A stretch of DNA of 64,000 nucleotides, taken from the NCBI GenBank assembly GCA_002422315.1, contig DIUJ01000049.1, forward strand, positions 83,799-147,798, given 5' to 3'. Positions 5,602 through 15,068 of this stretch are shown here, piece after piece. Below the pieces are notes generated by a model. It did not search any database and was not told where the DNA came from. It was given only the letters and a program-made list of their open reading frames with translations. The DNA is from Bacteroidetes bacterium UBA6161. Lineage in GTDB: Bacteria > Bacteroidota > Bacteroidia > NS11-12g > UBA955. Position 1 is the first letter of the stretch, and the number at the start of each line of letters is the position of its first letter. Position numbers and translations under genes: made by a program.

Positions 5602-6476
5602 GATTGGCTATGTTCTAAAAAAATAAGTATAATAAAAAAAACATTAACAGAAATAGCTGCAATATTGTTCATTCTCATAGTGTTTTCAAAGTTGGCTTCT
5701 TCTGGTTTGCTAAAAACACTCCGCATCCAAAGGTTAAAAAAACCAAAAACAGGAGCTGTGCAGAGGGCAAAAAGCAAAAGGTAAGACCATTTTTGTTGTA
5801 AAATCCCAAAATAGTAAAATGCCAATGCACCCAAGGCAGCAAACAAAATACTCGAAAAAACAAAAGTGCCTCTTATACCAAGAAGCATGCTCAGGGTTTT
5901 TACTCCGTCTTTTTTGTCTTGCTCGTGTTGGTACACTTGCGTAAGAGGATAGCCTGCACCTACCAAAACAAAGGCCATACAAAGGGAAACCATAAATTCC
6001 ATATCATACAGTATAGTTCTACCTGTAGAGATACTTACCAGCAAAAATATAACTACCCCTTGAAAAATGGAAACATGTAAAAAACCCAAAACCGGAAATT
6101 TTTTTATTCTGATTTTGCGATAGCTATATGCCCTGGAAGCCAAAACATACAAAAGTGCCAACGCACTTGCCACGGGGTTGGATACCCAAAAATAAACAAG
6201 CAAGATACCTACACTATCTAAAATAAGGCTAAGTACAAACATAGATTTTGGAACTTTTGGAGGCGATTTAATGCCACCTATACTCCCGGTGTCTTTGTCC
6301 ATGTAGCTATTGTAGCCATTGCTAGCGGGGTAAAGAAAAAAGTGTAATGCTACAAAACAAGCCAAAGTGCTGTTCCAGTCTAGGCTATCTGCTTGGCTCA
6401 AAGCAAATAAAAAAACTGGCATAAGATATACACCGAAGGGAATGCGCAAATGCAATAAAAGGGGAGGGTAACTCAT
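5598..6476 (-). CDS. UbiA-family aromatic prenyltransferase (integral membrane)
   Basis: About 8 hydrophobic helices. Asp-rich motif NGYNSYMDKD. 4-nt overlap with the PKS gene. Confidence 0.7.
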   Translation of the reverse strand: MSYPPLLLHLRIPFGVYLMPVFLFALSQADSLDWNSTLACFVALHFFLYPASNGYNSYMDKDTGSIGGIKSPPKVPKSMFVLSLILDSVGILLVYFWVSNPVASALALLYVLASRAYSYRKIRIKKFPVLGFLHVSIFQGVVIFLLVSISTGRTILYDMEFMVSLCMAFVLVGAGYPLTQVYQHEQDKKDGVKTLSMLLGIRGTFVFSSILFAALGALAFYYFGILQQKWSYLLLFALCTAPVFGFFNLWMRSVFSKPEEANFENTMRMNNIAAISVNVFFIILIFLEHSQS

Positions 6477-6663
6477 AAAGTTTTATTACTTCAAATAAAG
6501 GGTAAATTTTGTTTACCTGTTAGGTCTTTGCAAAAAAAGCTAAGTAACTTATTTTGAGAAGTCAATAAGATTTTGTATAGTAAATAAAAACTTGTAATAA
6601 ATGAAAAATATATGCAATATTGCAGGTATAGAGACGAATTAGGCTATACCATATCAAATAATA

Positions 6664-7092
6664 ATGAAAAAAATACTTTACTTTGGAATTGTTGGATTTT
6701 TAATCTCTTGTTCTACAACAAAACAAGCTGTAAAAACTGGTTTAAAAGATAATCAGACTTTTAAATTAACAGAAATATCAACTGACCCTACATATGGATT
6801 GACATATAAAAATCCTATCCAAGTTGGTGGTGTAGAGAAAGAAGAAGGTCCATTAAACGAAAGAAGATTTCTAAACGCTCTTGCTGGACCGAATGGAGAA
6901 AAAGTTTCTTACTTTCGAGCTGGAAGTTGTTGTCCTACCAAGAGTAACAATGATCCATTAGGATTTGGTAGTGTTATGTTAGATAATTATCGTGTAACAT
7001 GGGAAGGTTCAAAAGATACGGTTTCAATATATATAAATATGTATGATTATGGAACTTTAAAAGCTCCTGTTGGATTTACAATTAAAAAATAA
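6664..7092 (+). CDS. Hypothetical lipoprotein
   Basis: Lipobox GFLISC after a hydrophobic signal segment. No recognised catalytic motif. Confidence 0.5.
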   Translation: MKKILYFGIVGFLISCSTTKQAVKTGLKDNQTFKLTEISTDPTYGLTYKNPIQVGGVEKEEGPLNERRFLNALAGPNGEKVSYFRAGSCCPTKSNNDPLGFGSVMLDNYRVTWEGSKDTVSIYINMYDYGTLKAPVGFTIKK

Positions 7093-7094
7093 AA

Positions 7095-7340
7095 CTGCCA
7101 CAATTTTCTTAGCTATACCTCCCTCCTAAGGCAGACAAGTAAACAACACGTTTAAAAACCATTCTGTAAAAAAACCACTTCAATACAGGCCTTTTAAAAG
7201 AGGTATTTTTAAGACCATTTAAGACACCTGGATTTGCAAAATATTTTGCGCTTAAATTTTAAATCCAATAAATAAAACCCATTAAAAAGTGCGGAGTAAA
7301 GTAGTTTTTTCTATTTTTGAAAACAATACAGAGGTGTTTC
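7095..7340 (+). repeat. Intergenic repeat family, copy A
   Basis: Shares ...ctaaggcagacaagt...aaaaacc...cacttcaatacaggc... and ...agtagttttttctatttttgaaaac... blocks with copies B and C. Contains a tatttttg box at 7312-7319. Confidence 0.75.
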
Positions 7341-7399
7341 CCACCTAATGCGGGAACCAACAACCCGACAACCGCACGATTGAAAATAATGACATTTTT

Positions 7400-7491
7400 C
7401 GTATCATAATCAAATCAAAACGTATCAAAACGTATCATTTGTTGTTTGCGGTTTCAAATCTTAATCGTATCTTTGCGTATCAAAACGTATC
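7400..7491 (+). promoter_or_regulatory. Six CGTATC iterons (candidate operator) around the fic promoter
   Basis: CGTATC at 7400, 7421, 7431, 7466, 7476 and 7486. Most copies lie within the 10-bp unit aaaacgtatc. The last three are at exact 10-bp spacing, and the copy at 7466 overlaps the -7 box. Confidence 0.7.
7468..7475 (+). promoter_or_regulatory. Bacteroidota-type -7 promoter box (TAnnTTTG) for fic
   Basis: tatctttg lies 20 nt upstream of ATG 7495. TTTG at 7445-7448 is suitably placed for a -33 element. Confidence 0.55.
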
Positions 7492-7494
7492 AAA

Positions 7495-8535
7495 ATGGAC
7501 AACGAAGTATATAATTTTAAACTGAAAATTGATTGGAAACTGATTAACTTAATCAGTGAAATAGATCGTTTTGATGCAAATTGGACCGCTATTGAACGCA
7601 AAGAAGGACAAAGCCTCAAAGAGTTGAAGAGCATTGCTACCGTTCGAAGCGTAGGGGCTTCAAACCGTATTGAAGGCAACAGAATGAGCGATGAAGAAGT
7701 TGATGTGTTGCTTCAAAAAATTGATGTTACTAACCTTACTGACAGAGATTCGCAGGAAGTAGTCGGTTATTTTGAAGTACTGGACTTGATATCGGAATCT
7801 TATGAAAACATTAGCGTTACCGAAAACCATCTCAAAAGCTTACATAATAGTTTGATGAAATACAGTGCCATAGACGAATGGCATAAAGGCAATTATAAGC
7901 TGCATAGTAATGCGGTTGAAGCCTCATTTCCTGACGGCACACGTCAAATCATTTTTCAAACCACCGAAGCGGGATTTGCCACTGAAGATGCCATAAGGGC
8001 TTTGCTAAATTGGTATAATTCCGAAACGGAAGTACATACGTTAATAAAAGTAGCGTCTTTCGTCTATGAATTTTTGAGCGTTCACCCATTTCAAGACGGA
8101 AACGGTAGGTTAAGCCGTTTGATTTCAACGCTTTTGTTACTAAAAAATGGATATAAATGGATACAATACGTGAGTTTTGAACATGAAATAGAAAACCAAA
8201 AAAACGAATATTATAAGGTGCTTAGAAGTTGTCAAGCACAACGCCCAAACGAAGATGTAACTGTTTGGATACAGTTCTTTTTGAGTTGCTTGTCCAATAT
8301 TCAATCGCAACTGCTGCTGAAATTGCAAAAAAGTGGAATGGAAACACAGCTTTCACCCAAAGAAAAATCAATTTATTCAATTATACAAAACCGTCCGAAC
8401 ATCCAGTCGGGAGAAATTGCCGAAAAGTTGGCGATACCTGCACCAACCGTAAAACGCATTTTGTCAGAGTTGCTTAACAAAGGATTAATTGAAAAACAAG
8501 GAAGTGGACGCAATGTGAGTTACACAATAAAATAA
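7495..8535 (+). CDS. Fic-family protein (AMPylase-type) with N-terminal inhibitory motif and C-terminal winged-helix DNA-binding domain
   Basis: Fic core HPFQDGNGRLSR at 8083-8118. Inhibitory-helix-like motif SNRIEG ((S/T)xxxE(G/N)) at 7660-7677. C-terminal SGEIAEKLAIPAPTVKRILSELLNKGLIEKQGSGRNVSY is wHTH-like. Confidence 0.9.
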   Translation: MDNEVYNFKLKIDWKLINLISEIDRFDANWTAIERKEGQSLKELKSIATVRSVGASNRIEGNRMSDEEVDVLLQKIDVTNLTDRDSQEVVGYFEVLDLISESYENISVTENHLKSLHNSLMKYSAIDEWHKGNYKLHSNAVEASFPDGTRQIIFQTTEAGFATEDAIRALLNWYNSETEVHTLIKVASFVYEFLSVHPFQDGNGRLSRLISTLLLLKNGYKWIQYVSFEHEIENQKNEYYKVLRSCQAQRPNEDVTVWIQFFLSCLSNIQSQLLLKLQKSGMETQLSPKEKSIYSIIQNRPNIQSGEIAEKLAIPAPTVKRILSELLNKGLIEKQGSGRNVSYTIK

Positions 8536-8575
8536 CATTAAAAATTAATAAAACCAATAACTCAACAGATATTAA

Positions 8576-8800
8576 AATTGCCCAGCAACTAACTAAGCCA
8601 GAGTTGATGCTCCAAAGGCAGATAAGTGCTCAACACTTTAAAAACCTTCAAATTTGAATTTTTTGAGTAAAAAACAACTTCAATAGAGGCTTATTAAGAG
8701 AGCCATTCTTTTCATCTGGTAATTTTTACTTGTAAAAAGTCGCTTAAAAGAAATATAATGAATAGTTTTTTCTATTTTTGAAGACATAACGGAGGTTTTT
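8576..8800 (+). repeat. Intergenic repeat family, copy B
   Basis: ctccaaaggcagataagtgctcaacactttaaaaaccttcaaatttgaatt...aaaaaacaacttcaatagaggc is ~85% identical by eye to copy C. The distal block aatagttttttctatttttgaagac matches copy A, including a tatttttg box. Confidence 0.8.
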
Positions 8801-8857
8801 AGACAAACAGCCGTTGGGTGCAAGCTAAAAATTTATTAATCAAGAGAATATGAATAA

Positions 8858-9901
8858 ATGAGGAAATCCAGAATACATCAATTTTTGATAATATTTGCTT
8901 TATTAAATATTATGGCGGGATGTCAACCAAGTCCCATTTCTGAATTAGTAGAGAAGAACAACCTGTGGTTTAAAAATGACAAACTATATACTGGGAAGGC
9001 TTACGGTACTTCTAAAGCAATTAACAACGAACAAATTTATAAACATTTCGGCTTGACAAGCTTTGGAGACTCTTTAATTCTGAATATTGAGCGTGGTGAA
9101 ATTAAAAGAATAGATTTTTACACATCAAAAGGGCATTTTGCTAAACAAGAATTCAAAGAAGATTCAATTGTACAATTGGAATTTTACTACACCGAATCAG
9201 GGATTTGGGACGTGGAACTTATTTCCGGAATTGCAAGTTTCAGAAATGGGAAAGAACACGGATTGAGAACATATTATATTCATGGAAATAAAATCTATTT
9301 ATATTACAACAATGGGAGATTAGAGAGTAGAATTACTTTTCGGTTGAACCCATCACTTCTTGACTTTAATGAAATTTTAGTTGAGGAGACTGAATACATG
9401 AGCGAATCAAATGCTCAAATCACTAAGGAATACTATAGAGACGGTAAAACATTAAGTAAAAAGTCTGAAATAGATAACGATAAAGATATAAGAACTACAA
9501 TCATCTATGACTTGGATGGAAAAGTATATGAGAAAGTTATAAATGGTCAAAAAGTGGATGTTTCAATTGATGGAAGCGTTAAAACCTATAATAAAGGAGT
9601 CGGAATTACTTTGTCTGAATACAAGAATGGCAAAAAGCATGGAATAGAACGACAGTACTATACTAGCGGGCAACTTTGGGTTGAAACCACATATCAAAAT
9701 GGTATGATGCAGGGCTGGAATAAGCGTTGGTACAAAAATGGTGTGCTTGCTTTAGAATGTACATATATCAAAAATGTAATTAATGGAAACTATCGAAAAT
9801 GGTACGACAATGGGCAACTATGGGAGGAATCAATATACAAAAATGCGGAATTAATAACCCAAAAAAAATGGTATAACAATGGAAAACCTGCATTCAAATA
9901 A
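8858..9901 (+). CDS. Lipoprotein with C-terminal MORN-variant (YwqK-like) repeats
   Basis: Lipobox NIMAGC. Repeats of the form G.K.G....Y..G.L.....Y.NG (GKKHGIERQYYTSGQLWVETTYQNGMMQGWNKRWYKNGVL...). Confidence 0.7.
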   Translation: MRKSRIHQFLIIFALLNIMAGCQPSPISELVEKNNLWFKNDKLYTGKAYGTSKAINNEQIYKHFGLTSFGDSLILNIERGEIKRIDFYTSKGHFAKQEFKEDSIVQLEFYYTESGIWDVELISGIASFRNGKEHGLRTYYIHGNKIYLYYNNGRLESRITFRLNPSLLDFNEILVEETEYMSESNAQITKEYYRDGKTLSKKSEIDNDKDIRTTIIYDLDGKVYEKVINGQKVDVSIDGSVKTYNKGVGITLSEYKNGKKHGIERQYYTSGQLWVETTYQNGMMQGWNKRWYKNGVLALECTYIKNVINGNYRKWYDNGQLWEESIYKNAELITQKKWYNNGKPAFK

Positions 9902-9908
9902 AATTATT

Positions 9909-10343
9909 ATGCTCAAACAAATAGTAAAATACTCTCGTCAGACTTATCTTATTCTAAGCTTCTTCCATCTCATTTTGTTTTTTGTAATTCTAAGATCTCT
10001 ATACATAAGAAGTCTTTATATTCCAGAAACTTGGTATAGAGGAAGTTTGACTAGAATAATGCCAATTGCAGGTTATCAGCTTGGTTTTATAATGTTATTT
10101 ATCATATTGATCTTACTTATTGCTACTACATTGATTTTTCTAAAGAAGCATAAATACAAGATTATTTTATTTAGGATTTTATTCATAGTTCAATCCGCTT
10201 TAATAATCCCATTAGTTGGATTGATATATAAATGGCAGCTATATATATTTAAGTTTGGCTATGTATTAATTATTCCCATAATACTGCTCTCGATACTGAT
10301 GATCCTAAATAAATTTATAGTAAAAAAAACACCAGTTAATTAA
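9909..10343 (+). CDS. Small polytopic membrane protein (about 4 TM)
   Basis: Hydrophobic segments. I prefer ATG 9909 over the track start 9879, which would overlap the MORN gene. No recognised family. Confidence 0.45.
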   Translation: MLKQIVKYSRQTYLILSFFHLILFFVILRSLYIRSLYIPETWYRGSLTRIMPIAGYQLGFIMLFIILILLIATTLIFLKKHKYKIILFRILFIVQSALIIPLVGLIYKWQLYIFKFGYVLIIPIILLSILMILNKFIVKKTPVN

Positions 10344-10351
10344 ACCTGTTT

Positions 10352-10535
10352 ATTGCCGGCTGCCAACAGCCGTAGCTGTTCTTCCAAAGGCAGATAAGTG
10401 TACAACTCTTACAAAACCTTCAAATTTGAATTTCCAGAGAAAAAAACAACTTCAATAGAGGCATTTTTGGGATTAACTAAATTTTTCTCAAAAAATTAGT
10501 TGCTTAAAATGGCTCGTTTCTGTTCTGAAAATACG
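10352..10535 (+). repeat. Intergenic repeat family, copy C (distal part degenerate)
   Basis: ttccaaaggcagataagtgtacaactcttacaaaaccttcaaatttgaatt...aaaaaacaacttcaatagaggc. Preceded by the hairpin cggctg-ccaa-cagccg. Confidence 0.75.
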
Positions 10536-10671
10536 ATTTTACAAAAAAACCGCTAACCAAAAAACAGGTACAAAATCACCAAACTGCCAACCTTAACTGC
10601 ATTTTTTCTATCCAGAACAATAAATGTACATAATTTTCCGACACTATATATTTTAGCAATAGAAATACCTT

Positions 10672-10679
10672 TACCTTTG
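10672..10679 (+). promoter_or_regulatory. -7 promoter box (TAnnTTTG) for the SGNH/MBOAT operon
   Basis: tacctttg lies directly before the track start codon, which argues for the downstream ATG 10696 as the true start. Confidence 0.45.
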
Positions 10680-10695
10680 CATGGTAAAACTAAGT

Positions 10696-12150
10696 ATGTT
10701 ACCGCCTAAAAAAGTATTCCATTTTATATTGCTTGCATTAAGCTCTGTGTTGTTTCTTTCTTTTGTAAGTGAAACAATAGCGGGTAAAAAACAAGAAACC
10801 ATCTTTAAGTATTTTAAAATTAGCGATATAGTAGGGTATAGGGCATTCGCAGAAGCCAAGCATTTGGAAGTGGAAGAGCAAAAGGCTTTGGTAGAAGCAA
10901 AAAGAAAAAAAGAAGAATCTATAAAAAAGATTTCGAGCAAAGCAGATACCCTACAGTTTATGATTCAGCAAAGTCAGTTGGATAGTACCAAGTTCTTTTA
11001 TGCCTCAGGGATAAAAGATTTTTGGTTTCCTATTTTTGAAGAATGGGCTAAACTAAAAAAGGATAAAAAACTGTACAGAATTCTACATTATGGTGACTCT
11101 CAAATAGAAATGGATAGGATTACATCACACATTAGAGAGAAATTACAATCCAGATATGGAGGGAGTGGTCCCGGAATTTTACCCCCATTGCAGCTAGTGC
11201 CAAGTTATACCATAAGCCAAACCGCTTCTGGAAATTGGCAACGACTTGTAAGTTATGGTGCATCCAATACAAGAGCTCCGCACAATAGATATGGAATTAC
11301 AGGCATGATATTTAGATACAATGGCGGAAATGCTCAGGTATCTATAAGTCCAAGAGAGAAAAAATACCGACTTGTTAGAAACTTTGAAACTGTAAAAGTA
11401 ATAACTGGAGCCTACAATCGTTCCTTTACAGTGAGTTTACAAAATGGAAATACAACTTTAAGCCAATTGGTCCCTAGTGAAGGGAAAGAACAACTTATTA
11501 AATGGCAATTAGATTCCAATAAATCAAATGTATCCTTAAATTTTCAATCAGATTCAATAACCGATATATTAGGAATTGCAATAGATGGAAAATATGGTAT
11601 TGCTATGGACAATATACCTTGGAGAGGATCTTCGGGTCTTACATTTACTTCCATAAACAAGGCATCCTTAAGTCAAACCTATAAGTTTTTAAATGTTAGA
11701 ATGGTGATTATGCAATTTGGGGGTAACAGCATGCCATACATCAAAGACCCCAAAGCAGCGGAGCGATATGCAGCAAGTTTTGCAAAGCAAATAGACTATA
11801 TAAGGTCTATTGATACAAGTATTAAGATATTGGTTATTGGTCCTGCAGACATGTCAACCAACATAGATGGCAGTATGCAAACCCCAAAAATGTTGGAATA
11901 TTGTATTCAAAAAATGGCCGAAGAAGCGAATAAAAGAGGCGCGGCTTTTTGGAGTATGTACCATGCAATGGGTGGCAAAAACAGTATGGTTAAATGGGTT
12001 AAGAGGTCGCCTGCTTATGGTGCGCCAGATTACATACATTTTAGTAAAATAGGTGCAGAAGAAATGTCTAAAATATTTTATTCTGCTATAGAACGAGAAT
12101 ATCAGATTTATATGTTCCACAAAAACATGGAGGCGCTTAAAGTTGATTAA
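10696..12150 (+). CDS. SGNH/GDSL-fold hydrolase or acyltransferase, membrane-anchored (AlgX/AlgJ/PatB-like role)
   Basis: N-terminal anchor. Block I LHYGDSQ, GGN block (QFGGNS) and block V DYIH. Alternative start at 10681. Confidence 0.6.
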   Translation: MLPPKKVFHFILLALSSVLFLSFVSETIAGKKQETIFKYFKISDIVGYRAFAEAKHLEVEEQKALVEAKRKKEESIKKISSKADTLQFMIQQSQLDSTKFFYASGIKDFWFPIFEEWAKLKKDKKLYRILHYGDSQIEMDRITSHIREKLQSRYGGSGPGILPPLQLVPSYTISQTASGNWQRLVSYGASNTRAPHNRYGITGMIFRYNGGNAQVSISPREKKYRLVRNFETVKVITGAYNRSFTVSLQNGNTTLSQLVPSEGKEQLIKWQLDSNKSNVSLNFQSDSITDILGIAIDGKYGIAMDNIPWRGSSGLTFTSINKASLSQTYKFLNVRMVIMQFGGNSMPYIKDPKAAERYAASFAKQIDYIRSIDTSIKILVIGPADMSTNIDGSMQTPKMLEYCIQKMAEEANKRGAAFWSMYHAMGGKNSMVKWVKRSPAYGAPDYIHFSKIGAEEMSKIFYSAIEREYQIYMFHKNMEALKVD

Positions 12151-13405: not shown

Positions 13406-15068
13406 CTATATTCAAGAGTATTTAATCCAATTACTTTCATTCAATAAAAACTCACCTATAATCTTTACAGGTGTTTATTTCTGGGGTTTCTTTACCATTG
13501 TATTTGCTATTTTTAGTGTTATTCACAAAAAAATAACTATTCGAAACTTATTCTTGTTTTTAGTAAGTATCTTTTTCTATTACAAAACAAGTGGCTTGTA
13601 TTTTACCTTGTTGCTGTTTACCATAGTTTCCGATTATTTTATAGGGAAAAAACTGTTTACTACGGAGAATAAATTACACAGAAAGTTGCTAGTTATTTGG
13701 AGTGTAGGAGCCAATTTAAGTATTTTAGCGTACTTTAAGTATGCCTATTTTTTTACTGATTCTTACAATCAAATATTTGCAACTAACAATCAGGTATGGA
13801 ATGTATTTGCACAATTTAGTAATACCCTTTTAAACACAGGATTCGATGTAGATTCTATACTTTTACCGGTAGGGATTTCTTTTTACACTTTTCAGGCTAT
13901 AAGCTATACTGTAGATATTTACAAACGGAAATTGGAACCCTTGCATAGTTTATTTGACTTTGGTTTTTATGTTTCATTTTTTCCTCAATTGGTAGCAGGG
14001 CCCATCGTAAGGGCTTCTGAGTTTATTCCTCAAATGTATAGGCCTTACACTTTGTCTGGGTATCAATTTGGGTTGGCTATATTTATGATTCTTGGAGGTT
14101 TGGTCAAAAAAATGGTCATTGGTGATTATATGGCGGTGCAATTTATTGATAAGGTATTTGCCAACCCTGTTATGTTTACAGGTTTTGAAAATCTAATGGC
14201 CGTATTTGCATATTCCTTGCAGGTTTATTGTGATTTTTCAGGATATACAGATATTGCTATAGGTATTGCATTGCTAATGGGTTTTAGGTTTAATACCAAT
14301 TTTAATTCACCTTACAAAGCACAAAATGTTGCTGAATTTTGGAAGCGTTGGCATATCAGCTTATCTACTTGGCTAAGAGATTATTTGTATATTCCTTTGG
14401 GCGGAAACAAAAAAGGAAGTATTGTATCTTATATATTATTTGTTTTGCTAGTAGCAATTCTAACCATGTTGTTGGGCCTTTCTGCATATTGGCTACAAAT
14501 TGTTGTTTCATTAGTTATTTTGATGTTGTTGTATCAGGTTTTTCCTTCGGTACGAAAACACATCAATACCAACATTAATCTTATGCTTACCATGTTATTG
14601 GGAGGTCTGTGGCATGGTTCAACATTGAATTTTATAGTATGGGGAGGATTAAATGGTTTGGCTTTAGTTTTTTACAAACATTGGAGAAAAATAAGTCCAT
14701 GGGAGAAGCTAAATCAATGGTATATAAGGGTATTTAAAATTACATTTACTTTTGCTTTTATTTCATTTACTCGTATATGGTTTAGAGCAGCAGATGAACA
14801 AACTGCAACTTCTGTTAGAGAAATGATTTTTTATAAACTAGATTTCTCTTATGCTGGGGATGTTCTTTTAGGATTTTGGAAAGTGTTTTTGGTATTTGCC
14901 CTAGGTATGACCATACATTGGTTGCCAAAAGAATTGAAAAACAAGGTGAAATATTCTTTTATAAAATCACCAGTATATACAAAGGTAATTGTTGTACTGA
15001 TAACCGTACTGATAATCTGGCAAACAGTATCAGCAGATTTTATTCCTTTTATATACTTTCAGTTTTAA
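13398..15068 (+). CDS. MBOAT-family membrane-bound O-acyltransferase (AlgI/PatA/DltB-like)
   Basis: Polytopic. Signature FWKRWHISLSTWLRDYLYIPLGGNKKG with the conserved His. ATG 13398 (overlap ATGAATAA) preferred over the TTG at 13368. Confidence 0.85.
   Translation: MNNYIQEYLIQLLSFNKNSPIIFTGVYFWGFFTIVFAIFSVIHKKITIRNLFLFLVSIFFYYKTSGLYFTLLLFTIVSDYFIGKKLFTTENKLHRKLLVIWSVGANLSILAYFKYAYFFTDSYNQIFATNNQVWNVFAQFSNTLLNTGFDVDSILLPVGISFYTFQAISYTVDIYKRKLEPLHSLFDFGFYVSFFPQLVAGPIVRASEFIPQMYRPYTLSGYQFGLAIFMILGGLVKKMVIGDYMAVQFIDKVFANPVMFTGFENLMAVFAYSLQVYCDFSGYTDIAIGIALLMGFRFNTNFNSPYKAQNVAEFWKRWHISLSTWLRDYLYIPLGGNKKGSIVSYILFVLLVAILTMLLGLSAYWLQIVVSLVILMLLYQVFPSVRKHINTNINLMLTMLLGGLWHGSTLNFIVWGGLNGLALVFYKHWRKISPWEKLNQWYIRVFKITFTFAFISFTRIWFRAADEQTATSVREMIFYKLDFSYAGDVLLGFWKVFLVFALGMTIHWLPKELKNKVKYSFIKSPVYTKVIVVLITVLIIWQTVSADFIPFIYFQF

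Follow-up and report, generated by a model that had tools for sequence, protein, structure and literature searches.

An intergenic repeat in a Bacteroidota gene array as a probable promoter-carrying recombination site of an integron-like system

We analysed a 64,000-nt stretch of the genome of Bacteroidetes bacterium UBA6161 (the window; C55:83799-147798 in an assembly of 2.99 Mb, 87 contigs and 89% completeness), in which three same-strand units of accessory genes are each followed by a copy of one non-coding repeat, here called the L element. L is most probably, with a confidence of roughly 0.7, a promoter-bearing form of the recombination site that lies between cassettes in an integron-like system of the Bacteroidota. 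This reading is carried by a cassette rule that links the boxes at the ends of the sites, by structured companion sites (S sites), by a recombinase associated with them, by the origin of the 3' part of L from an insertion sequence (IS), and by the deletion of the recombinase gene at this locus. The new feature is the site itself, which is IS-derived and bears a predicted promoter.

The L family and the cassette rule

The first-pass annotation, made from the letters of the window alone, described three consecutive units with homologous non-coding elements on their 3' sides, and every feature it listed was found where it had been placed. Copies B and C, judged by eye to be about 85% identical, align without gaps over 100 nt at 83% (8596-8695 vs 10368-10467), and at 89% over the central 80 nt. 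The reported loss of the palindrome TTCAAATTTGAA from copy A corresponds to a 14-column gap in its alignment to the 5' core, and the block said to be shared by copies A and B, with its TAnnTTTG box, spans 38 nt (TAGTTTTTTCTATTTTTGAA...) at 87% (7302-7339 vs 8763-8800). The core had been noticed nowhere else in the window. These three copies are indeed the only ones in the window and on its contig, C55, but the family extends through the genome.

Across the whole genome, an iterated nhmmer profile returned 38 pieces, with E-values down to 1e-51; they fall into 30 intergenic regions, which form 14 clusters on 12 contigs. The similarity of the L repeats is far beyond chance. All 30 regions lie 3' of a gene and are oriented like it; they share the orientation of the downstream gene as well, three array ends excepted. 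Almost every copy begins within ~60 nt of the stop codon, most of them within 30 nt (2-60 nt in the window), and finishes 20-150 nt ahead of the next ATG. Where an array ends against a convergent gene, L lacks its promoter half. A dispersed repetitive extragenic palindrome or miniature inverted-repeat transposable element (MITE) with no link to gene boundaries, which the first-pass annotation had raised as a challenge to its own reading, is thereby excluded.

The complete form of L is ~450 nt long, and the copies, 250-500 nt overall, are 70-90% alike. Read in the orientation of the genes, the order is stop codon, ...(G)C(T/A)TAAC, AGCCGTAGCTGTT CCTCCTAAGGCGGACAAGTGCACAAC, core, promoter block, GGAGGTTTTTAGAC(A), an optional hairpin TGTAATCCCGCCCAATGCGGG, AAACTGCC-GTTAgc and the next ATG; the conserved element therefore runs further 3' than first described, through a leader and a hairpin to the GTTA box. 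Short forms such as copy A result from deletion between two internal CTTTTAAAAGGCATTTT motifs. There are two core subtypes, which differ wholly in the palindrome region, while one architecture, a 5' core fused to an IS end, is found 3' of ~28 different genes.

The evidence that relates L to cassette recombination lies at its two ends. We denote as R'' the ...YTAAC box that opens the element and as R' the GTTR... box that closes it; boxes of 34 L and S sites were picked by hand and then subjected to a permutation test (20,000 permutations). In front of a gene, the bases after GTT are reverse-complementary to those that come ahead of AAC behind that gene. Thus, R'(n) and R''(n+1) match at 4.76 of 9 positions, compared with 2.91 ± 0.31 in the permutations, none of which (0/20,000) reached the observed value, whereas the two boxes of one and the same site score 3.08, which is background. 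Perfect runs of at least 5 occur in 6 of 21 pairs, as opposed to 1.3% of background pairs. The rule is obeyed by L-L pairs alone (5.0 vs 2.83 ± 0.50, p ~5e-5) as well as by S-S pairs alone (p ~2.5e-4). One example is the pair GTTATAAGCCATA ... TATGGCTTATAAC around the gene at C56:3916-4641; another, at locus L021, joins the two site types, an L-type R' GTTAGCTGCT pairing with an S-type R'' AGCAGCTAAC across one cassette. Since automatic box extraction at locus L016 was noisy (p=0.14 with false sites included), only clear individual pairs from that locus are cited. Complementarity between a box and that of the next site is the signature of integron cassettes with crossover at G|TT: the distal bases of R' are then part of the downstream cassette, and it was that cassette's own R'' with which they once paired. 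The earlier suggestion that the repeats are recombination scars is therefore borne out at their ends; its alternative, that they are insertion scars, proved apt for the interior 3' part, as shown below.

S sites, recombinases and the IS-derived promoter block

L elements share the genome with sites of a second type. The S site is a ~135-nt imperfect palindrome, GCATAAC-AGCACCTACCCAAAAGGCGGGG ... CCCGCCCTTCGGGTAGCTGCCAAAC-GTTAGC at locus L008; ~17 are present in this genome, including a 7-site array on contig C7, and on C4 and C56 the S and L sites are mixed in common arrays with a common orientation. Covariation was assessed on 18 S copies, with 500 shuffles and slid partners as controls. Three helices (TAAC/GTTA plus two arms) are paired in 83.3% of cells, against 67.3 ± 1.7% in the shuffles (0/500) and 27-40% with slid partners, and 13 pairs have changed on both sides, i.e., in a compensatory manner. 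An imperfect palindrome of the attC type, with structure kept over sequence, is thus found in the S sites only; L end constructs fold as two local hairpins, AACAGC-nGTA-GCTGTT and TCCCGC-CCAAT-GCGGGA. The first-pass annotation had seen neither attC symmetry nor an integrase near the array. This holds for L and for contig C55, where no tyrosine recombinase was found, but the symmetry is present in the companion S sites, and recombinases lie on contig C64 and at the sister-species locus L008.

S-type arrays are led by a co-oriented Xer/XerA-like tyrosine recombinase. In this genome an S site stands at the end of C64, 1.2 kb 3' of a recombinase of 378 aa, which shares 43% identity with the 367-aa enzyme at L008, and a recombinase at L016 (58% identity) heads at least 15 cassettes, whose sites (~165 nt) follow the same boundary rule and contain an internal -7 box, TACTTTTG. 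At C64, L008 and L016 alike, at least two co-oriented genes with conserved intergenic motifs lie 3' of the recombinase. The best model for the enzyme is NF040815 (XerA "tyrosine recombinase/integron integrase"). With TIGR02249 (IntI) it scores 204-206 bits, below the cutoff of 265, in a match split into two stretches, and in comparison with VchIntIA (2A3V) it has 18 residues where IntI has ~60. The IntI-specific insertion is therefore absent and the enzyme is not an IntI-type integrase. It carries instead an N-terminal extension of ~100 aa, and it belongs to an XerD/XerA-like family that is very large and widespread in the Bacteroidota. Most L arrays have no adjacent recombinase. With three L sites and no recombinase on C55, the window array has the composition of a CALIN, that is, at least two sites with no integrase nearby. 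The integron or CALIN layout proposed earlier is thus supported, with the reservation that the recombinase of the system is of the Xer type and not IntI.

That the window has lost its recombinase is apparent from sister species, which were found via the flanking UbiA-family protein (88-90% identity). Their UbiA-side slots hold wholly different genes and no L element, in line with the earlier view of the segment as a hotspot: the slot beside the UbiA operon differs in each sister species. At L008 it opens with the 367-aa recombinase, followed by co-oriented genes parted by S sites. UbiA-side homology with the sister species stops at window ~6540-6554, and window 6539-6641 matches the last ~10 nt of the L008/L009 recombinase open reading frame (ORF) plus ~90 nt 3' of it. 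This leader block is present in L011 as well. Up to GAGTTA (GACGAATTA in the window) all four sequences resemble one another, and directly beyond it they are unrelated; L008 and L009, which share the same UbiA protein and have recombinases of equal length, domains and position, carry different first cassettes after GAGTTA. Divergence at exactly this point marks the leader as an attI-like insertion point, and its homology identifies the window array as the orthologous platform from which the recombinase gene, together with a 120-aa ORF, has been deleted. Of the integrase and attI expected at an array head, the window therefore retains a leader with an R'-like box; the recombinase stands directly upstream only in the sister species, where it is co-oriented with the array, not divergent.

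As for the second half of L, its 3' ~40-160 nt, including TAnnTTTG, are the right end of an IS1182-type insertion sequence. The first clues came from metagenome matches: at L022 the promoter block comes after a transposase C-terminus, and the L "leader" AGAGGTTTTTAGAC is the reverse complement of GTCTAAAAACCTCT, the sequence ahead of a DUF772 transposase fragment in C4 and L021. A full-length IS of ~1.7 kb was then found inside an S site in G011. It encodes a 506-aa transposase with the Pfam domains DUF772, DDE_Tnp_1_6 and DDE_Tnp_1, which define the IS1182 type, and its junctions read ...GCTGAAAACCGTCAAACT|GTCTAAAAACC ... CCTATTTTTGAAACCGAAACAGAGGTTTTTAGAC|GAACTGCC-GTTAGC, the right-end junction having the form ...AGAGGTTTTTAGAC|GAACTGCC-GTTA. 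The last ~160 nt of this IS are colinear with the middle and 3' block of L at 75-88% identity (BLAST). Two further IS copies in G089 and truncated ones in C4 and L021 lie in different S sites, each at this position and in this orientation. Thus, the left junction ...AAAAC-GTCAAACT|IS recurs at five different S sites (G011, G089 twice, C4, L021), and the right junction IS|GAACTG(C/A)C-GTTA at two complete copies (L025, L032) and at L021. We conclude from this constancy that the IS inserts specifically at the point immediately 5' of the R' GTT.

In their full length, the copies at L025 and L032 show a DDE transposase between inverted repeats, as expected of the IS1182 family. L copies hold the right end only and no transposase: the left inverted repeat GTCTAAAAACC is absent from every one of them, and each occurrence of this sequence within L regions is the reverse complement of the IS right end. 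The TAnnTTTG box faces outward from a point ~24 nt inside the IS tip. The junction is simple in copy B (AGAC|AAACAGCC-GTTGGG); in most other L copies a further hairpin of 22 nt separates the IS tip from AAACTGCC. No full-length IS or transposase is assembled in this genome, where C4 ends inside another right end. The earlier option of a portable promoter/terminator module thus stands for the promoter, whose predicted box sits in the IS scar; conserved intrinsic terminators were looked for in the core and not found.

The 5' core is a different matter. It gave no blastn or blastx signal with the IS copies, and its origin as decayed IS DNA or transposase coding sequence was rejected on these grounds. 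The first hairpin of the core could be read as a collapsed S site. A scan of metagenomes with the type-1 core gave 0 matches, and one of species genomes with the L 3' block only 2.

Combining these elements, we propose the following course of events. Circular cassettes would be inserted by crossover at G|TT, an exchange that the Xer-type recombinase would perform; this enzyme may act, or may once have acted, on L in trans. L would have been born when the site-specific IS entered a recombination site and decayed there, and the outward-facing, putative promoter of the IS remnant would now transcribe the downstream cassette. The window array is the orthologue of a recombinase-led array, minus its recombinase, and now persists in a CALIN-like state.

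Some observations on the sites and recombinases stand beside this account. On C7 (C7:13792-9115), one and the same sequence, GTTACCACCAATGCCAAAAAGACAG...TTTTTTAAAATTTCTCCCTCAACCCG, comes after three S sites; the R' boxes before it form the S-site pairs of C7 that violate the boundary rule, which points to a repeated module or to minimal sites that were missed. Such minimal sites are seen at L016 (L016:12278-12313, 14143-14178), where ...GCTCACAAC-AAAC-GGTTAG... is seemingly a cassette boundary without hairpin arms, its R'' matching the upstream R' GTTGTGAACAA; to judge from this example, which shows little beyond the two boxes, sites can apparently shrink that far. Fragments of an L008-type recombinase (32-37 aa, 62-69% identical) are present at C7:8663-8752, within the S-site array, and at C10:1004-1114, and are likely remnants of further deleted recombinase genes. 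The distal array end at L008 (L008:412-2494) has a second tyrosine recombinase (302 aa) beside an IS91-family Y2 transposase. Contigs often end in S or L sites or just past a recombinase (C64:1, C4:26302, L015, L017, Logan SRR5323089). The arrays thus break assemblies, and both their size and their linkage to recombinases are underestimated in short-read data. Finally, a separate, hairpin-rich MITE of ~190 nt with ends AACCCAAAAT...ATTTGGGTT is nested in some L copies; it is seen at C64:25070-25269, C49:38609-38767 and on many other contigs, with 78 BLAST matches genome-wide in both orientations and 0 on the window's contig.

The window array and competing explanations

The layout of the array is given below. 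Copy C, at the array end, has neither a promoter block nor an R' box.

Features of the window array (window positions; R'' and R' are the boxes that open and close an L element)
Feature	Position	Strand	Description
Array leader, attI-like	6539..6641	+	palindrome GCAATATTGC at 6614-6623; ends in GACGAATTA (relatives: GAGTTA)
Cassette 1	6664..7092	+	142-aa lipoprotein; no Pfam or PADLOC family
L element copy A	7093..7359	+	short form, degenerate; palindrome deleted
Copy A, R''-like box	~7099-7105	+	degenerate, CCACAAT
Copy A, 5' arm	7108-7136	+	CTTAGCT...CCTCCTAAGGCAGAC
Copy A, core motif	7177-7190	+	ACTTCAATACAGGC
Copy A, IS right-end remnant	7296-7339	+	
Copy A, Bacteroidota -7 box	7312..7319	+	TATTTTTG in IS-derived block; faces Fic cassette
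Copy A, imperfect hairpin	7340-7354	+	CCCACCTAATGCGGG
Fic cassette control region	7397..7492	+	repeated AAACGTATCA motifs; second TAnnTTTG at 7468-7475
Cassette 2	7495..8535	+	Fic domain + C-terminal winged helix-turn-helix; PADLOC SoFic defence model, 143.7 bits
L element copy B	8576..8821	+	short form; most complete of the window copies
Copy B, 5' arm	8609-8634	+	
Copy B, palindrome	8647-8658	+	TTCAAATTTGAA
Copy B, core motif	8677-8690	+	ACTTCAATAGAGGC
Copy B, IS right end	8766-8804	+	ends GGAGGTTTTTAGAC; then AAACAGCC
Copy B, -7 box	8773..8780	+	TATTTTTG, 24 nt inside IS tip, outward to MORN cassette
Copy B, R' box	8813-8821	+	GTTGGGTGC
Cassette 3	8858..10343	+	MORN_2 lipoprotein + overlapping membrane protein
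MORN_2 lipoprotein	start 8858 or 8912, end 9901	+	YwqK-type repeat
Membrane protein	9879-10343	+	154 aa; overlaps MORN_2 gene
L element copy C	10362..10535	+	3'-truncated long form, array end
Copy C, R'' box	10362-10367	+	GCCAAC
Copy C, local hairpin	10364-10379	+	AACAGC-CGTA-GCTGTT
Copy C, arm	10381-10406	+	
Copy C, palindrome	10419-10430	+	
Copy C, core motif	10449-10462	+	ACTTCAATAGAGGC

The leader palindrome GCAATATTGC is perfect (10 bp), lies ~15 nt 5' of the GAGTTA-type box and is invariant in four species, which makes it a candidate binding site for the recombinase or a regulator. Cassette 1 is flanked by a direct repeat, TTAGGCTATACC (6640-6651), at the end of the leader, and TTAGCTATACC (7109-7119), in the 5' arm of copy A; the repeat does not fit the cassette rule, which would predict an inverted one there. 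The control region of the Fic cassette, with its AAACGTATCA repeats, is probably an operator through which the winged-helix domain of the Fic protein regulates its own gene. Beyond the array, an ORF of 489 aa was called from 10681. The public records do not contain it at that length, their gene calls give 484 aa, and its start is probably at 10696; its first ATG comes immediately after a TAnnTTTG box, TACCTTTG, at 10672-10679.

The genes in L arrays are typical accessory cargo: two Fic proteins (the window one being SoFic), PARIS (AriA/AriB), AbiL (AbiLi/AbiLii), a YhcG nuclease (candidate PDC-S02), a RES-domain protein, an AAA_14-DUF4143 protein, two Gp49/HigB plus helix-turn-helix pairs, a MazF-like toxin, MORN_2 and many lipoproteins without a family. 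The MORN_2/YwqK-like cargo amounts to one gene, and the remainder is defence, toxin-antitoxin (TA) modules or lipoproteins. A MORN cassette at L002 was considered as a second occurrence of the same mobile cassette and rejected, as it is only 25% identical to that of the window. GC content is 0.31-0.36 in the array and 0.33-0.38 in its flanks, and the array shows no clear GC skew.

Several points weigh against reading L as a recombination site. No long-range stem of the attC type is predicted for end-to-end constructs of L, and profiles of the S arms reached at best 3.2 bits at L ends, where shuffles gave 5-6 bits; this homology is not significant, and only shared boundary boxes are therefore claimed for the two site types. 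The boxes were curated by hand from printed sequences, and those in the window are weak, copy A lacking a recognisable R' box and the B-to-C pair matching at 5 of 9 positions only. Copies within an array are no more alike than copies from different arrays (0.708 vs 0.686), and local homogenisation was not seen. Nor does this reading account for the presence of one architecture behind ~28 different genes, for the origin of the 5' core (CCTCCTAAGGCGG...TTCAAATTTGAA...AGAGGC) or for the role of that core with its palindrome. The activities of promoter and recombinase are predictions from sequence. Lastly, the presence/absence polymorphism for which the first-pass annotation had proposed to look was not found among assemblies that carry the exact flanking or cassette proteins of the window: all have the same layout of the three cassettes, so that the array varies between species and is apparently fixed within this strain.

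Some of these facts would also suit a fossil, in which cassettes were inserted at S-type hairpins until invasion and decay of the IS froze the arrays, leaving the repeat as a promoter module only. The missing long-range hairpin, the identical array in every assembly that carries it, the deleted local recombinase gene and the degenerate boxes in the window all fit such a history. We nevertheless hold it to be unlikely, because one L architecture behind ~28 genes implies that cassettes or sites moved or were copied after L arose, because the boundary rule holds equally well for L-L and for S-S pairs, and because an L-type R' pairs with an S-type R'' over one cassette in L021. A still less likely alternative dispenses with site-specific recombination: the arrays would be built by RecA-mediated double crossover between ~300-nt L copies, e.g., during natural transformation, L being landing pad and promoter. 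Such a process would predict neither inverted box complementarity specific to each cassette nor divergence exactly past GAGTTA, nor that L is found together with structured S sites and with a dedicated recombinase, although L copies are long enough and alike enough for RecA (250-500 nt, 70-90%), identity around a duplicated 116-aa lipoprotein cassette fades gradually without a sharp end site, and most L arrays lack an adjacent recombinase.

That L could be a non-autonomous IS derivative (MITE) moving into intergenic regions, unrelated to cassette recombination, is brought to mind by its partial IS origin, by the site specificity of the parent IS and by the different, true MITE nested in some copies. 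A MITE, however, has both inverted repeats, a target duplication and either orientation. With the left repeat GTCTAAAAACC in no copy and the orientation of the upstream gene kept in all 30 regions, this reading was rejected as very improbable; furthermore, L always adjoins the stop codon via its R'' box, and no full-length transposase is assembled in this genome. Scarcely credible, finally, is a small RNA or the remnant of a duplicated gene as the source of the conserved core. The core is a long conserved non-coding stretch and its 12-bp palindrome could be a signal at the protein or RNA level, but Rfam gave no match on window 6000-11500 at E<=1, blastx revealed no similarity to a transposase, no frame is conserved in the alignment, and the two core subtypes differ wholly at the palindrome.

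We thus favour L as a promoter-carrying recombination site. A wider claim, to which we give even odds, is that the Bacteroidota run their own integron analogue, with an Xer-type recombinase without the IntI insertion, ~135-nt structured sites and the G|TT rule, and that a site-specialised IS1182-family element has supplied it, through its decayed right end, with a portable promoter-bearing site by which otherwise silent cassettes, many of them anti-phage, would express themselves.

Relation to known systems

According to the IntegronFinder 2.0 survey, in which CALIN denotes an attC cluster without integrase, complete integrons are nearly absent from Bacteroidetes (PMC9024848). Such surveys find the phylum almost empty because they seek IntI and canonical attC. 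The present arrays resemble sedentary chromosomal integrons and CALINs in their R'' (..AAC) and R' (GTT..) boxes, with the distal R' bases belonging to the next cassette, in S hairpins that conserve structure over sequence, in an attI-like leader after whose GTTA relatives diverge exactly, in TA and defence cargo (compare bioRxiv 10.1101/2024.07.02.601686) and in the occurrence of arrays without integrase. They differ in a recombinase that falls below the IntI cutoff, lacks the IntI insertion, bears the N-terminal extension of ~100 aa and has the same orientation as the cassettes, and in L sites of 250-500 nt without attC fold. The locus and the recombinase-led arrays of its relatives look like a working cassette platform that tools based on IntI and attC would miss; it holds lipoproteins and TA modules as well as the defence systems SoFic, PARIS and AbiL. 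Should the rule be confirmed, cassettes in thousands of Bacteroidota genomes could be delimited by their YTAAC...GTTR boxes and the complementarity of these to the next site.

The acquired interbacterial defence clusters with an associated recombinase (rAID-1) of gut Bacteroidales have a 5' XerD-like recombinase, co-oriented short genes and conserved intergenic motifs "reminiscent of integrons" (bioRxiv 10.1101/471110; PMC12247911). As described there, they require a recombinase at least 44% identical to BF9343_RS08045 with at least two co-oriented genes, are reported from Bacteroidales only, and are defined by orphan type VI secretion system immunity cargo and GC skew. By that description, our arrays are similar in the co-oriented 5' recombinase, the runs of short genes, the intergenic motifs, the fragmentation of assemblies and some possibly immunity-type cargo (MORN_2/YwqK-like). 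They are dissimilar in their host, a metagenome-assembled genome of a non-Bacteroidales member of the Bacteroidota, in cargo that is mostly anti-phage defence, TA modules and lipoproteins, in the lack of a clear GC skew, and, for the window array, in the lack of a recombinase. The passages of the rAID-1 accounts at our disposal give no site anatomy or cassette rule, and the anatomy of S and L may supply what is still wanting there. In the searchable literature we found neither the non-IntI system described beyond rAID nor any IS1182-type element described as directed at sites of this kind.

Mobile elements that home on cassette sites have precedents. IS1111-attC elements insert specifically into integron attC sites. 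The IS described here shares with them a fixed position and orientation inside a cassette site (just 5' of the R' GTT, in at least five S sites), but its DDE transposase is of the IS1182 type and not of the DEDD IS110/IS1111 type, its host system is a non-IntI array, and in this genome only decayed, multiplied right ends remain. Group IIC-attC introns are likewise mobile elements associated with integron attC sites (PMC7923331).

For the predicted promoter, two comparisons can be drawn. Insertion sequences of Bacteroides carry outward promoters that activate, e.g., cfiA or erm genes, and L resembles them in a TAnnTTTG-type box near the IS terminus that reads into the adjacent gene; unlike them, the IS end is here a decayed remnant, fixed in a recombination site and propagated with it. 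A site-homing IS that leaves its promoter end behind would be a concrete mechanism for expressing cassettes remote from the array promoter. The closest functional analogue is provided by Vibrio superintegrons, which contain promoter-carrying gene-less cassettes (Blanco et al. 2023, bioRxiv 10.1101/2023.11.21.568050). In both systems, non-coding DNA between cassettes bears sense-strand promoters, here predicted ones, for promoterless cassettes downstream. In Vibrio, however, a gene-less cassette that is separate and has an attC of its own houses the promoter, whereas here it would lie inside the site, as a -7 box likewise does in the ~165-nt site of L016, and would derive in L from an IS end that forms one repeated family.

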